Source: a virus
Lineage: Duplodnaviria; Heunggongvirae; Uroviricota; Caudoviricetes
Strand: one strand, 5' to 3'
IMG/VR virus record: IMGVR_UViG_2537561977_000033
Length of the DNA stretch: 45,340 bases
Shown here: in pieces, positions 2,304-40,585 of the stretch
Layout: each line of letters opens with the position of its first letter
Numbering within the stretch: the first letter of the stretch is position 1
Notes under the pieces: generated by a model
What the model was told of the DNA's origin: nothing
Databases searched by the model: none
The model's input: only the letters and a program-made list of their open reading frames with translations
Made by a program: the position numbers and the translations under genes

Positions 2304-2591
2304 TATAATAAACTTACTTTTTTATCATTTTTCCACTTTAACAACATTTTGCTCCACTTTTCCACGACCAAACAACTTGAAATCTGGTTAAAATAACACG
2401 CAACACTATTCTTCTTCCTTGAGTCCGCCCGGAACTCGAAAAACAAACCGAGTTAAAGCCATTTTTCACAAAATCGATTTTGGGTTTCACCAAAATTACG
2501 GGGTTGCATACGCATTCGTTTATTTTCGAACGTGTAGGTAATGCTGCCAACTTACTGATTTAGTGTATGATGGTGATTTTAAGGTGCTTGC

Positions 2592-2867
2592 GTGGCTTCC
2601 ATTTCCATCAGATGTCCTTCCTGCTCCGCTACTGAAGGCGTGGTGCGTAACGGCAAAAGCACTGCCGGACATCAGCGCTATCTCTGCTCTCATTGCCGTA
2701 AAACATGGCAACTACAGTTCACTTACACCGCCTCTCAGCCCGGTACGCACCAGAAAATCATTGATATGGCCATGAATGGCGTCGGATGTCGCGCCAGTGC
2801 ACGCATTATGGGCGTTGGCCTCAACACGGTTTTACGTCACTTAAAAAACTCAGGCCGCAGTCGGTAA
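2592..2867 (+). CDS. insA: IS1 InsA, 91 aa
   Basis: [43 protein letters not shown]... matches IS1 InsA from memory. Confidence 0.85.
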
Positions 2868-3289
2868 CCTCGCGCATACAACCGGGCAGTGATGTGATTG
2901 TCTGCGCTGAAATGGACGAACAGTGGGGCTACGTCGGTGCTAAATCACGTCAGCGCTGGCTGTTTTACGCGTATGACAGGATACGGAGGACGGTTGTGGC
3001 GCACGTCTTCGGTGAACGCACTCTGGCCACACTGGAGCGTCTTCTGAGCCTGCTGTCGGCCTTTGAGGTCGTGGTATGGATGACGGATGGCTGGCCGCTG
3101 TATGAATCACGCCTGAAGGGAAAGCTGCACGTTATCAGCAAGCGTTACACTCAGCGCATTGAGCGACATAATCTGAATCTGAGACAACATCTGGCAAGGC
3201 TGGGACGGAAGTCACTGTCGTTCTCAAAATCGGTGGAGCTGCATGACAAGGTCATCGGGCATTATCTGAACATAAAACACTATCAGTAA
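2786..3289 (+). CDS. insB: IS1 InsB reading frame, 167 aa (normally made as InsAB' by frameshifting)
   Basis: [16 protein letters not shown]...[13 protein letters not shown]... matches IS1 InsB; overlaps insA in another frame. Confidence 0.85.
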
Positions 3290-3395
3290 GTTGGAGTCAT
3301 TACCAACGTGTACATACAAATATGCACAAAAATAATCATAATTATTTTCTGAGATGCATTATGATATGAACACCAATTTCGTATAGAGTCTCACT

Positions 3396-4658: not shown

Positions 4659-6313
4659 TATGCAAGCCTCACAATATAGTTAAATGCGATGTTTTTGACG
4701 GTGTTTTCCGCGTTACCAGCAGCGTTAACGGTGATGGTGTGTCCATGTGAACCAATCGCAACGGAGTGCGTATGAGCACCAATACCGACAGTATGTGCAT
4801 GTGCGCCTGCGCTTGCAGCAGTACCGGACAGCGAGTGGGTATGAGCACCATCTGATGATGTCTTCCCTGCATTACGAGTCTGGCCACTACCGCTTGTTGT
4901 GCTCATAATCCCCGCGCTTAGATTTGAAATCGCGGTATAACCATTAGGGAAAATGCTCGTGTTCGTGCCACCAAATGCACCGGAACTCTTGTGTTGGTGC
5001 GCACCGGCACTATTTGCGGTCCCGCTAATACTATGGGTATGCGCCCCGGTGTTATTCGTGGATTTGGTTCCGTAATCAAACGACGATGTGGTTTTCGTCC
5101 CCAAATCCGTACTGGATGCGCTGGCGCTGTGGGTGTGCGATTTAATGCCGTCCTGTTCCTGAGTTAATACGGCCCGACCACTGGCGGGCTTGCCCTTAAT
5201 CGTCCAGCCACGCATATCAGGGATCACGCCTGACGGATAAGCAACTGCAAGTTTCGGGTATGCAGATTTGTCAAAAGTCTGCCCCTGCATCAGGGCATAA
5301 CCAGACGGAACGGTATCTGATGGCCACGGGATTGGTGCACCGACTGGATAAAACTCTGCAGGAGGATGAGCCGAGGTGTAAAGCTGCGCCCACGGCGACC
5401 AGTTTGCGTCGGTCGTATCCCGTCGTGAACGAATAAATGCCGGAGCATGAGCACCGCTTGTACCACTCCAGCCGATGAGTAACTCACCTTCGCCAACGGC
5501 TGTCATCCCTTTCAGGTGAATGATATTTCCATACGCTGTTGGATATCCGTTGTTATACACCTCGTATAACTCAAGACCTGCTGCCCCCTGCGTATTGTCT
5601 GTCAGCGCGGTTACCCGACCTTTTGAAGCCAGATTAACTGATGATACTGCTGTTCCACCTGACGGTAACGCCCCGATCTCTGATGCCGTTGGCTTATTTC
5701 TGGAGTTATAGTCCCTTCGCCAGCCAGGTGAATAATCTGTTCCGTGATTAATATAGGTAAACTGGGCGTTAGTTGTTCCACCACCAGTGGAGGTGGTCGG
5801 TGTGGTAATGCGGATCGTCATCGCTGACTTTATCCCCATTACTTCAATGACAGCTCCGGCGAGATGAATATTACCGCAGTCAGTATCAGTAATGATTTTA
5901 TTATTGCCATAAGACCAGGACCCCTTGCACATCCAGTAGGGATGGTTAAATGCTCCCTGAGAATCCAGCCACTCGATAAACTGTGCAGTCGTCCAGTTTC
6001 CTGTTGTTGTGCTTACTGACCCACCGAAGGCACGGCAGGCACCAATATTTTTCGTAAAGGTATCTTTGCCAGGGATATCCGCACCGTTCTGATCTTTCTG
6101 CAGACGTTTCTCAGCATTGTCATTGGCTGCTTTTACTGCCTTTGGCGTTGCCGCCAGCGTTTCAGACGTGCTGTTGGTCGCGCTGCTTAACTGGATTATC
6201 CCTTTGTGCTGTCGTTGCATCCTGTGCGGTGTATTTCCCGTTAGCCAGGTCATACGCGGCCTTAACGGCTTTTGGCGTTGCCGCCTGTGACTCGGAAGTG
6301 CTGTTGGTCGCAC
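4658..6313 (-). CDS. stf: side tail fiber, C-terminal distal part; frame differs from the upstream stf part, real translation start unclear
   Basis: C-terminus ...[40 protein letters not shown] matches lambda Stf; carries the conserved box [26 protein letters not shown] near its N-terminus; first ~35 codons look like out-of-frame read-through. Confidence 0.7.
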
Positions 6314-15159: not shown

Positions 15160-16453
15160 CTGAGGAATCCCCAGAAAACAAGACAGGCATAGTGAGATGT
15201 GATCTAATTGATTGTGCTAACAATTTCAAGGAGATCACCACTATGCCTGCACGTTCATTATGCCAAAATTTCCTTAACAACATACTGGCCCCTTTGCATC
15301 TTTACCGTCAAAAATCACTGATTGACGCAACTAATGCTGTAATAAATGGCGCTTCCCTCACACTTACCAGTATCGGGCGTCATTTAACCGGTACGGCATC
15401 AGTTAAAAACAAAATAAAGCGGGTGGATCGACTGTTGGGGAATCGACATTTGCAAAATGAGGTTTCCACCATTTTTCAGCGAATTACCCAAAAGATTACG
15501 CGGGGAATGTCTCGTGTTGTGATACTCATTGACTGGAGTGCTTATCATGCCTCTCGTTTTCAGCTTTTGCGGGCAAGCCTGGCATGTGACGGGCGTTCTT
15601 TACCGTTGATGAGTTGTGTCGTTCCATCATCACAGACAGCGAATGCAGATGTACATGAGCGTTTTCTGGAATCGCTTGCTGAGTGCTTTTCCCCCGGGAC
15701 TGATGTCATTGTTATTACAGATGCCGGTTTTCAGGGGCGATGGTTCCAACAGCTCCGCTCCCGTGGCTGGACCTATATTTGCCGGGTACTGGGCAATCAT
15801 TATTACAATGTTGGTAATGGCTGGGAAAAGGTGTCGGACTCAGGCACAAAAGCATCAACGACAGCAATTTATTTAGGTGAAGGCCTGCTGGGTCGAGATA
15901 AAAATGCACAACATGAAGGGCATTTTTATCTTTATAAAAGTAAGCCTAAAGGTCGTAGATTTAAACGCTCGAAGGAAAGAGCAACCAGACCATCGGTGAC
16001 GGCTAAAGCTCGTACTGCCGGGAAATCACCATGGTTTATTTTCACAAACAGTACTGAGTTCTCGCCAAAACAGGTAATGAAATTATACAGCCGTAGAATG
16101 CAAATTGAGCAAAATTTCAGGGATGAAAAAAATCCTCGCTGGGGATTTGGACTACGGTTTGGTGCCAGTCATTCATCCGGGCGGGTCACGGTATTGAGTC
16201 TGATCGCAACATTAGCCAGTATCATTATGTGGTTAAGCGGTTTCAGCCTGGAAAACAAAGGGATACATCATAAATATCAGGCAAATACAGTGAAGCACAG
16301 GCGAGTCATCTCGTTATTAAAACTGGCGGAGAATGTGATTCGACATTCTCCACTCATACTAAACACACTGTCACTTGACGCAGGGCTGAAAGTTCTACAG
16401 CAACGGTATACCAATATGATAATGGTTTACTAAATTTTCTGGGGATCCCTCAG
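15160..16453 (+). mobile_element. IS4-family (IS10-like) insertion sequence, ~1.29 kb, no flanking direct repeat
   Basis: Terminal inverted repeats CTGAGGAATCCCCAGAAAA (15160-15178) and TTTTCTGGGGATCCCTCAG (16435-16453) resemble IS10 ends (CTGA.GATCCCC); flanking 9-mers differ (AGTCAGCCC vs GGCAAATCC). Confidence 0.8.
15192..16433 (+). CDS. IS4-family DDE transposase, 413 aa, IS10 transposase-like
   Basis: Motifs KRVDRLLGNRHLQNE, YKSKPKGRRFKRS, YSRRMQIEQNFRDEK and HKYQANTVKHRRV parallel remembered IS10 transposase; partial identity only. Confidence 0.85.
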   Translation: MRCDLIDCANNFKEITTMPARSLCQNFLNNILAPLHLYRQKSLIDATNAVINGASLTLTSIGRHLTGTASVKNKIKRVDRLLGNRHLQNEVSTIFQRITQKITRGMSRVVILIDWSAYHASRFQLLRASLACDGRSLPLMSCVVPSSQTANADVHERFLESLAECFSPGTDVIVITDAGFQGRWFQQLRSRGWTYICRVLGNHYYNVGNGWEKVSDSGTKASTTAIYLGEGLLGRDKNAQHEGHFYLYKSKPKGRRFKRSKERATRPSVTAKARTAGKSPWFIFTNSTEFSPKQVMKLYSRRMQIEQNFRDEKNPRWGFGLRFGASHSSGRVTVLSLIATLASIIMWLSGFSLENKGIHHKYQANTVKHRRVISLLKLAENVIRHSPLILNTLSLDAGLKVLQQRYTNMIMVY

Positions 16454-26159: not shown

Positions 26160-26340
26160 AATTCAAGAGTCTCATTGCTGCTTCCAGAATTTCTTCTGAA
26201 GTTACATGTCGATCCGCTGCTACATAAATGACTTTATGATCTCCGGTCAGAGATGGAAACCCTGCGGCCATTACAGTAAGGTGTGTTTTTCGCCATTTGG
26301 ATATTCACGCATGATGGTGTTAACTCCAGTCATCGCTGGC
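26160..26340 (-). pseudogene. unidentified small gene remnant split over two frames
   Basis: ...PAMTGVNTIMREYPNGEKHTLL(stop) followed in another frame by MAAGFPSLTGDHKVIYVAADRHVTSEEILEAAMRLLN. Confidence 0.2.
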
Positions 26341-26869: not shown

Positions 26870-27230
26870 AATTATTACCTTTTGAAGAAATTAGCCCTTG
26901 GGCAGAATGGTCCGAAAAAAATATCAGAGAGAAAAACCAACAAGGAAATCTCAAGAGGTACAAATAATAAAATTATAACAATGACTGCTTCAGATAAATT
27001 TGTAACAAACCAGAACACCATTAACGCATGATTAACCACCCATAGCAAGGATTACTTTTGTAAAGAAAAACACAGCAATGAAAGAATAGCTTTATTTATT
27101 AATAAAACGTGTCATTCTGATTAAGACCTTTTATCTTACCCTTAAGATTTCAGGAATTTTGGCTCATGGAAGAGTCCTTTTTATTCAAATTTTACATTCC
27201 GCGATGTAAATGTTCCGATTTAATATTACC

Positions 27231-33471: not shown

Positions 33472-33542
33472 AGCCTGCTTCTCCTGTCAACGCAAAGCAG
33501 AAGTGTCACCTTCGGTGCGAAACAGAGATGTCATGCTTTGGT

Positions 33543-34399: not shown

Positions 34400-34601
34400 A
34401 GGAACGTAGCACGTTTTATGCAACACCCGCATGCGGCAGAAAATTATTGCCGAACGTTTACCCCTGTCAACAAGCTTTACTTTCTGAGGCGCGCCAGCCC
34501 GCGAGGAAAACAATCTGAACATCAAACAATTAATGACACAAGAAATACGATTAAAGATTTTTTTGTGCATGCCGATAGTGCTTTTTTAAAAGGAGAAATC
34601 T

Positions 34602-34918
34602 ATGTCTGTCACAATTCAGGGAAATACCTCAACCGTTATTTCAAACAACTCCGCCCCGGAAGGAACATCAGAAATAGCCAAAATCACAAGACAAATTCAG
34701 GTGCTGACTGAAAAGCTTGGGAAAATCTCATCGGAAGAGGGGATGACGACACAGCAGAAAAAGAAATGGCTGCATTGGTACAGAAGCAAATTGAAAGCCT
34801 CAGGGCTCAACTGGAGCAGTTGTTAAGGCAGCAGGCAGAGAAAAAGAATAAAGACGCGACAGTTCAGCCTGATAAAAAGAAGAGAAAAAGACGATACAAA
34901 TACCGCTGGCACCATTGA
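34602..34918 (+). pseudogene. flxA: FlxA-like protein with an apparent -1 frameshift near an A-run
   Basis: Frame 1 MSVTIQGNTSTVISNNSAPEGTSEIAKITRQIQVLTEKLGKISSEEGMTTQQKK then frame 2 MAALVQKQIESLRAQLEQLLRQQAEKKNKDATVQPDKKKRKRRYKYRWHH; junction at CAGAAAAAGAAATGG. Confidence 0.45.
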
Positions 34919-34945
34919 TATTTACGTCTAAGTGACAGCCGTATT

Positions 34946-34968
34946 GTGGCCCTCATCGGGCCACTTTT
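34946..34968 (+). terminator. rho-independent terminator after flxA
   Basis: GTGGCCCTCATCGGGCCAC followed by TTTT. Confidence 0.5.
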
Positions 34969-35129: not shown

Positions 35130-36790
35130 GTCACTTTTGTGGGGACAGTCCACAAAACTGCCAACTTCCGCTTCTTGCTCTTAGCGGACATTAGCATAGG
35201 CTATTTACCATAACGCCTCATTACGCGCACCGCCCAGACTGACTCAGCGCGTTTCTGGCATATCCCCGGTAAAACAAGTAACAACCCCCCCGAAAATGAA
35301 CACCAGAAACGCGACTTAAGAATCTACCCTATGAATGGATATGCACTCAACCGAATCGATCTTGGTTTCAATCTATTTTATCGGGATCAGGCTTCTTTTT
35401 AGGTAACTTCGGGGGCTTAACTTGCTGATGACTTTGCGTTCGGCGCGTAAGCCAGGGATGGTCAGCTTTAGATTTAACATAGTATTTTGAGCGTAAATCA
35501 ATACGGGCATTATCCACTCGTTCATGGACACTCTTTTCATCATCCAGTGGTATAGGCTCCGGGCCATCAACATACTTTTCCCAGCCCAGCGCTTTCCCGT
35601 CATACAGAACGTTAATTTCACCGTCAAAGTTCTCACATACAGTAACAACCGAATGCCTAAGTCGATATCCCCGGCCCTCACTGCGTACCTGAAACGCACT
35701 GCTTTTGTACTGGAAAGTGAGATTTTTAGACAGAACGCGCTTCGCCTGTAGGCTGAAGATATAACCCAGTTCCTCTTCAGAATGGTGCACATCAAGATGA
35801 GCATTATCAGTAGTACGAGGCGACGTAGCGAACCGGTTGTTATAGGCTTCAATAAAGGTCGGCAACCATGCATTTGCTGTTTCAATATCACTGATATTCT
35901 GAAGCCGCATTTCTTTGACCAGCCTGTCCTGTAGTGTCTGATTGGCGCGCTCTACCCGCCCTTTTGCCTGCGGGCTGTTGGCATGGATTGGCTCGATGCC
36001 CAGTGTCTTTATCGCACGAGTGAACTGGGTCAGCTCACCTTCCCGCTCTGGGTTATTTACCCTGAATATACTGTGTCTATCAGAGTAGAGAGCGAGCGGT
36101 ACGCCATGATCATTAAGGTAACCCCGGAGGGTTTCCATGTAAGCCCGGGTTGTTTCAGCAGGCACAAAACGCAACGCCATCAACGCACTGGTGGCATCAT
36201 CAATGAAAACGATCAGTGTACATCTGGGGCCTCGATTTTCAAACCAGTCATGCGGTGAGCCATCAATCTGGATCAGTTCACCGTAAGATGGTCGTCGCAT
36301 GCGGCGTTGATATATACGGGCAATTTTACGACGGCGTTCACGCCATAACCCCTCTTCTATCATCCACTTTCTGAGAGTTTCAACGGATAAAGATAAACCG
36401 TGTATCTCGCGCAATTTTTCGCACGCAAACGTAGGTCCAAAATCAGCGTAACGGCCTTTGAGGAGTGAAATTACTGTTGCTCTGAATTCAGTAGAAAAGG
36501 AATTATTAGGACGCTTTCCACGTCGGTGGGAAACCAGACCAGAAGGCCCTTCATTTCTATACCGTTGCACCAGACGTTTAACCTGCCGAATAGAAATGCC
36601 AATGCGTGCCGCAGCTTGTTCCTGAGTAATATGTCGATTAATTGACTCCTGAATAATCTGAAGTCGGTGGAGTTCCTTATGACTCATCGTAACAGTCTCT
36701 TTGATCATGAAAAATCCCCCAGAGAATTGTCTGGGGACATTTTAGAATGGTTCAAAGGGGACATTACAGCTTGGTGTTAACAATAGCCTG
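35130..36790 (-). mobile_element. insertion sequence carrying an integrase-fold DDE transposase (IS481/ISNCY-like); boundaries approximate
   Basis: Transposase gene 35368-36708; palindromic GGGGACA-containing sequences on both sides (35136-35160; 36711-36770); exact ends and target duplication not resolved. Confidence 0.4.
35368..36708 (-). CDS. DDE transposase with N-terminal HTH and rve integrase core, 446 aa
   Basis: MIKETVTMSHKELHRLQIIQESINRHITQEQAAARIGISIRQVKRL... (HTH), then candidate catalytic D (IQIDGSPHDWF), D (LYSDRHSIF) and E (AKGRVERANQTLQDRL). Confidence 0.8.
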   Translation of the reverse strand: MIKETVTMSHKELHRLQIIQESINRHITQEQAAARIGISIRQVKRLVQRYRNEGPSGLVSHRRGKRPNNSFSTEFRATVISLLKGRYADFGPTFACEKLREIHGLSLSVETLRKWMIEEGLWRERRRKIARIYQRRMRRPSYGELIQIDGSPHDWFENRGPRCTLIVFIDDATSALMALRFVPAETTRAYMETLRGYLNDHGVPLALYSDRHSIFRVNNPEREGELTQFTRAIKTLGIEPIHANSPQAKGRVERANQTLQDRLVKEMRLQNISDIETANAWLPTFIEAYNNRFATSPRTTDNAHLDVHHSEEELGYIFSLQAKRVLSKNLTFQYKSSAFQVRSEGRGYRLRHSVVTVCENFDGEINVLYDGKALGWEKYVDGPEPIPLDDEKSVHERVDNARIDLRSKYYVKSKADHPWLTRRTQSHQQVKPPKLPKKKPDPDKID

Positions 36791-40532: not shown

Positions 40533-40585
40533 TTTCTGGTGACGTTTGGCGGTATCAGTTTTACTCCGTGACTGCTCTGCCGCCC
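40533..40585 (+). ncRNA. dicF: DicF small regulatory RNA (ftsZ-targeting), ~53 nt, followed by a T-run
   Basis: TTTCTGGTGACGTTTGGCGGTATCAGTTTTACTCCGTGACTGCTCTGCCGCCC matches the DicF sequence as I remember it; between the ydfB/C region and dicB. Confidence 0.8.

Follow-up and report, generated by a model that had tools for sequence, protein, structure and literature searches.

In Escherichia coli K-12, flxA is a gene of the Qin prophage that belongs to the FliA regulon, whose function is unknown and which has no obvious role in flagellar synthesis or motility (PMC4183435, PMC1935009). The window, by which we mean the whole 45,340-nucleotide stretch of DNA that was analysed, carries the counterpart of K-12 flxA (b1566) at the same locus, among the same neighbours and behind an identical FliA promoter, and differs from it in that the gene is split over three reading frames and reaches a premature end after 74 codons. 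The flxA allele of O26 strains that encodes WP_001317460.1 is identical in DNA to that of the window save for three A's that the window lacks. Positions 24766-44918 match contig ADUP01000059.1 of the E. coli LT-68 draft assembly (GCA_000188815.2) at 100% identity, and window 34750-34895 corresponds to about 96,460-96,600 of that contig. One product of the split gene, the 50-residue ORF2, is the GenBank entry EFZ55512.1, 'protein flxA [Escherichia coli LT-68]'; the 74-residue ORF1 is apparently uncalled in the LT-68 record.

Two kinds of described sequence invite comparison with this locus. Frameshifted copies of flxA are found in 14EC047, in VE-V11-M, in the NCTC drafts UGDS01 and UGET01 and in AIGE01, and they carry the same A6 to A5 changes, one per genome in every case, whereas LT-68 alone has all three. 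Homopolymer errors of draft assemblies share with the window the confinement of the changes to homopolymers, a uniform loss of one base, a steep dependence on run length, occurrence in a single assembly, the breakage of conserved genes and the lack of any excess of substitutions, and the assignment of the window to this class rests on that error signature. As set out below, the break in flxA is very probably an artefact of homopolymer under-calling in the LT-68 draft, flxA being intact in the cell.

The flxA locus and its signals

Directly upstream of flxA in the window stand rem, hokD, relE, relB and ydfV, at 99-100% identity in a tblastn search with the reference proteins, and the gene occupies the orthologous position, 3' of relBE-hokD and ydfV in a Qin-like lambdoid prophage. 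The 28 promoter bases TAAAGATTTTTTTGTGCATGCCGATAGT are unique in the window and identical to the K-12 flxA site bound by FliA in ChIP-seq (PMC4183435), and the pattern TAAAGNTT-N10-12-GCCGATA, for which no match is expected by chance, has the flxA promoter as its sole match in the window. On the strength of this identity the promoter is predicted to be FliA-dependent. Downstream of the gene, a hairpin with a folding energy of -15.6 kcal/mol (z = -2.6) probably serves as the flxA terminator, a role that we predict from its structure; a scan for consensus terminators made no call for this hairpin 3' of flxA because its T-tail is short. The coordinates of these elements are collected in Table 1.

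Table 1. Elements of the flxA locus and positions of all shortened A/T runs, in window coordinates.
Feature	Position	Strand	Details
FliA (sigma-28) promoter of flxA	34552..34579	+	TAAAGATT-N11-GCCGATAGT; intact, including the T7 run
Shine-Dalgarno AAGGAG	34590..34595	+	6 nt 5' of the flxA ATG; identical in K-12 and O26
flxA locus as written	34602..34931	+	330 nt versus 333 nt in the intact gene (alignment with K-12 and O26)
ORF1, 74 aa	34602..34826	+	FlxA residues 1-54 (MSVT...QQKK) and 20 out-of-frame residues, KWLHWYRSKLKASGLNWSSC
Run 1, A5 versus intact A6	34758..34762	+	CAGCAG-AAAAA-GAAATGG; first frameshift
ORF2, 50 aa	34766..34918	+	FlxA residues 56-93 (MAAL...PDKK), then frameshift tail KRKRRYKYRWHH
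Run 2, A5 versus intact A6	34874..34878	+	GAT-AAAAA-GAAGAG; second frameshift
Run 3, A5 versus intact A6	34885..34889	+	GAAGAG-AAAAA-GACG; third frameshift, restores the original frame
Putative intrinsic terminator of flxA	34946..34968	+	7-bp GC-rich stem GUGGCCC/GGGCCAC, 5-nt loop, UUUU
15 other shortened A/T runs	1423, 3985, 8419, 13904, 18538, 25924, 25965, 26286		
15 other shortened A/T runs, continued	26364, 26377, 26915, 27642, 29198, 29987, 33222		

As intact references we took flxA of K-12 MG1655 and of O26 RM10386, both 333 nt long and encoding 110 residues. Alignment of the window with the O26 allele gives three single-base gaps and no substitution, and alignment with the K-12 allele gives three single-base gaps and two substitutions. 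Intact flxA holds three A6 runs inside 132 nt, all three of which are A5 in the window. The net change across the three runs is -3, so that the ATG at 34602 and the stop codon share one frame, while the interior is shifted twice and an in-frame TAA is met at 34824-34826. ORF1 departs from the native frame at CAGCAG-AAAAA-GAAATGG. ORF2 begins at the native Met56, in a frame other than that of ORF1, and only its first 38 residues are FlxA sequence, its last 12 being a frameshift product that arises from the deletions in runs 2 and 3. The native C-terminus DDTNTAGTIDIYV (the last 13 residues, followed by the stop codon at 34929-34931) lies in the original frame, the native end TNTAGTIDIYV and its stop being read again in the frame in which the gene starts.

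The two reading frames correspond to successive parts of one protein family. ORF1 scores 29.3 bits over positions 2-49 of the Pfam FlxA profile (PF14282, cut-off 26.3), and ORF2 matches positions 52-89 with 22.3 bits, which taken alone is under the cut-off of 26.3. Since the two are colinear on the profile, their pairing is not a matter of chance and they represent two halves of one gene. When the three A's are restored, the translated protein is identical to the O26-type WP_001317460.1, and this repaired product of 110 residues belongs to the FlxA family with a score of 54.1 bits against a gathering cut-off of 26.3.

These results bear out the core of the preliminary description of this DNA and revise its details. 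It had reported a break of the flxA reading frame near an A-rich run, with a one-base indel as the likely cause; two colinear FlxA ORFs in different frames are indeed present and the alignment with K-12 flxA has a gap in the A-rich run at about 34758 (A6 to A5), but the break consists of three one-nucleotide deletions, not one. The 54 N-terminal codons that it recognised are native FlxA residues 1-54. Its C-terminal segment of 52 codons has to be shortened to the 50 of ORF2, with FlxA sequence confined to the part that precedes KRKRRYKYRWHH, and its gene end at 34918 is the stop of the shifted ORF2 frame, the native C-terminus ending at 34931. It was this wrong end coordinate that gave rise to the argument that the length of the locus is not a multiple of 3, which fails because the true locus (34602-34931) measures 330 nt. 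A single uninterrupted frame of about 110 codons, which would have told against the description, is absent from flxA in the window, and K-12 FlxA can be followed there only through three frames.

Shortening of A/T runs across the window

To establish the direction of the run-length differences, we compared either half of the window with three finished genomes, six main references in total. In 18 A/T runs, the three of flxA among them, the window falls short of the references by exactly one base, and in no run does it exceed them, the exceptions to full three-reference support being the run at 26286, where two references aligned, and that at 26915, where two of the three references are longer. 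That all 18 changes point in the same direction has a probability of about 8e-6 in a two-sided sign test. For the six main references taken together, we observed one comparable run change in a single reference, in addition to the shorter length at 26915 that one of them shares with the window. Consistent with this, 19 of the 20 gaps in a blastn alignment with strain 0-4 (19.5 kb, 99.5% identity) are one-nucleotide deletions in the window, mostly in A/T runs, and the gaps in the alignment of ATCC 8739 with the first half of the window are likewise almost all one-nucleotide window deletions in A/T runs.

The shortening depends steeply on the length of the run in the references. None of 1130 runs of 3-4 bases is affected, as against 2 of 128 runs of 5, 9 of 55 runs of 6, 2 of 11 runs of 7 and 5 of 5 runs of 8; when the flxA runs are set aside, 6 of 52 A6 runs (about 12%) are under-called. 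The affected runs are all A/T, although only three G/C runs of at least 6 bases could be compared, so the base bias says little. The shortened runs are also clustered, with five of them lying within 450 nt at 25.9-26.4 kb.

Besides flxA, shortened runs break the frame of four genes whose reference counterparts are intact, namely gnsB (25.9 kb), ynfN (26.3 kb), rzpQ (27.6 kb) and the gene of tail protein L (13.9 kb), and the remaining shortened runs are intergenic. About 50 other genes are colinear with the reference proteins in tblastn, mostly at 99-100% identity. Between 25 and 45 kb, where 18.7 kb could be compared, the window has 14 private substitutions, of which 7 are transitions and 7 transversions, together with 12-13 private run deletions; over the same interval the corresponding figures for the finished genomes are 18-151 substitutions and 0-1 changes in run length. 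The window thus stands out by a marked surplus of indels, and nothing in it points to a mutator.

Origin of the three deletions in flxA

The length dependence, the uniform direction and the normal load of substitutions point to an origin outside the cell. In the mechanism that we propose, long A/T runs in the LT-68 draft would have been called systematically one base short, and the three A6 runs of flxA would have been under-called to A5, which would split the gene. In the cell, flxA would then most likely be an intact gene of 110 codons, identical to the O26-type gene of WP_001317460.1, and would represent a Qin-like prophage gene driven by FliA (sigma-28). The cause would be an error of base calling or consensus building, of the pyrosequencing, semiconductor or nanopore type, rather than mutation; we infer this from the pattern of the changes. 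We take the drafts of the accession series and date of LT-68 to be 454 pyrosequencing assemblies, and a literature search with accession ADUP and the names of sister strains found no record of the sequencing platform; the error signature holds whatever the platform was. We also count in favour of an artefact that the promoter, Shine-Dalgarno sequence, start codon, stop codon and terminator hairpin of flxA are all intact.

The extent of the damage to this one gene sets a limit on the simplest form of the model. If each A6 run were miscalled independently with a probability of about 12%, the shortening of three out of three A6 runs in one gene would be expected in about 0.2% of cases, which speaks against independence and indicates that the errors are locally clustered. 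Low local coverage is a plausible explanation for the clustering of the shortened runs, and the choice of a gene that looked broken, made in the preliminary description, adds to the excess.

The occurrence of the three deletions elsewhere bears directly on how often they might be real. In RefSeq, the flxA locus is present in about 1200 of the 5426 complete genomes of E. coli, the best matches extending over 504 bases against the 501 bases of the query. Among the 1194 complete genomes with the flxA stretch, run 1 is A6 in all 1194 and A5 in none. The A5 form of run 2 is found among complete genomes in 14EC047 only and that of run 3 in VE-V11-M only, both copies being labelled 'frameshifted' by PGAP, and run 3 is A5 also in an error-rich JGI metagenome contig (L006). 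Given these counts of 0, 1 and 1, a true deletion has a prior probability of about 0.1% or less per run. The exact 50-residue product of ORF2 is encoded on one public contig only, ADUP01000059.1, and since this product requires the deletions of both run 2 and run 3, the triple deletion is present in no other public assembly. A phase-variable contingency locus was considered as well and rejected, A6 being essentially fixed (in all 1194 genomes for run 1, and in all but one each for runs 2 and 3).

Run 1 has a wider distribution than the other two, and it gives rise to a mixed interpretation in which slippage did remove a base from run 1 and left LT-68 with a flxA pseudogene, only the changes in runs 2 and 3 being assembly errors. 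At least 59 contigs in NCBI, JGI and Logan encode the 74-residue frameshift product to which the run 1 deletion alone gives rise. In five loci that were fetched (L005, L009, L011, L012 and L014, with flxA at 3001-3332 in each), run 1 is the sole homopolymer that has lost a base, the aligned flanks of 1-6 kb being free of such deletions, and the carriers of the A5 run include both K-12-type and O26-type flxA alleles in different prophage contexts. Slippage may have produced a true allele that recurs, or this site may be subject to a systematic error of its own. Against the mixed interpretation, homopolymer deletions abound in four other carriers (L006, L007, L008 and L010), so that repeated error accounts for some of the recurrence, and not one of the complete genomes counted above has the shortened run. 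The run-1-deleted pattern in its exact form is absent also from the species-representative genomes of GTDB, among which LT-68 is not included. Moreover, LT-68 is not specifically related to the carriers: 11 differences in 6.2 kb separate it from the nearest of them, L011, most of them involving a base that all other fetched loci lack. Because LT-68 under-calls about 12-16% of its A6 runs, an artefact at this site is at least 50 times likelier a priori, and we regard the mixed interpretation as unlikely. We give a similarly low probability to the broader proposition that the A5 form of run 1 is a genuine loss-of-function allele of flxA that has arisen independently and repeatedly, in LT-68 and in about 60 contigs, at a slippage hot spot; in that case a dispensable, FliA-regulated prophage gene may have been hit, and runs 2 and 3 of LT-68 may still be assembly noise.

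That all three deletions are real, either because flxA is an old pseudogene or because LT-68 is a mismatch-repair-deficient mutator that contracts A/T runs, is very improbable. Homopolymer runs are natural hot spots of -1 slippage, the more so when mismatch repair is lacking, and for each of the three runs there is at least one further public genome in which it is shortened. Against this reading, no substitution separates the window gene from the O26 allele, although three indels do. Loss of mismatch repair produces mostly transitions and indels in both directions, whereas all 18 events in the window are losses of one base, with none of +1 or -2, the A8 runs are affected without exception, and the private substitutions are not raised in number and are half transversions. 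A mismatch-repair mutator was accordingly rejected on the direction of the changes, the saturation at A8 and the spectrum of substitutions, and the uniqueness of the triple deletion to LT-68 speaks against all forms of this reading. Were the deletions true, they would add one more pseudogene of a prophage gene whose function is unknown. We attach hardly any credence to a deliberate decoding of the locus by programmed ribosomal frameshifting or by transcriptional slippage on the A runs. A-rich runs are possible slippage sites, and the net change of -3 keeps start and stop in one frame, but three separate corrections would be required, the in-frame TAA terminates ORF1, and the flxA runs are just 5 A's long, as compared with the roughly 9 or more A/T residues at which transcriptional slippage is efficient in E. 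coli. The homologues are read in a single frame (the run 1 shift being found in 0 of 1194 genomes and those of runs 2 and 3 in one genome each), and a programmed frameshift is effectively refuted by this single-frame gene in nearly all other genomes.

Taken together, the break in flxA is almost certainly not a real biological feature, and the deletions almost certainly represent a systematic homopolymer-length error of the draft and not mutation. With under-calling as the preferred explanation, the value of the observation lies in quality control and not in biology: the window and, by extension, the LT-68 draft under-call long A/T runs, and apparent frameshifts, pseudogenes and split genes that fall on homopolymers there (in the window flxA, gnsB, ynfN, rzpQ and tail protein L) are suspect and are to be discounted unless reads bear them out. 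The entry EFZ55512.1 is a fragment in which the last 12 residues are a frameshift product.

Further differences within the window

Several other differences from the reference genomes were recorded. Compared with ATCC 8739, the window has an insertion of 768 nt between ydfK and pinQ (2537-3304), with ORFs of 91 and 167 residues, which by its size and ORFs we take to resemble IS1 (InsA/InsB). A block of about 1.3 kb at 15161-16452, which contains a transposase-like ORF of 413 residues (15192-16433, + strand), replaces about 4 kb of ATCC 8739 tail genes, starting with two-thirds of the tape measure gene from its N-terminal end and continuing through T, G, V and U into the tail gene that follows, and the prophage is therefore tail-defective. 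An uninterrupted transposase ORF of 446 residues (35368-36708, - strand) lies 440 nt downstream of flxA; its counterpart in several finished genomes is annotated as a truncated pseudogene of the IS1202-like ISEsa1 family, and ydfW is called inside its end.

A deletion of 2 nt at 6205 (CCCTT[TC]TGTG), again in comparison with ATCC 8739, splits a prophage tail-fibre gene into two frames. As it lies outside any homopolymer, this deletion may have arisen by genuine mutation; identity also drops to only about 90% over the 3' half of the gene. Lastly, two apparent one-nucleotide deletions of the window relative to strain 0-4 (locus L003), at 33482 (CCC/CC, 3' of hokD) and at 40573 (TT/T, between ydfB and dicB, presumably where the DicF sRNA gene is located), are insertions private to strain 0-4, since at each site the window has the same sequence as every other fetched locus that extends over it.
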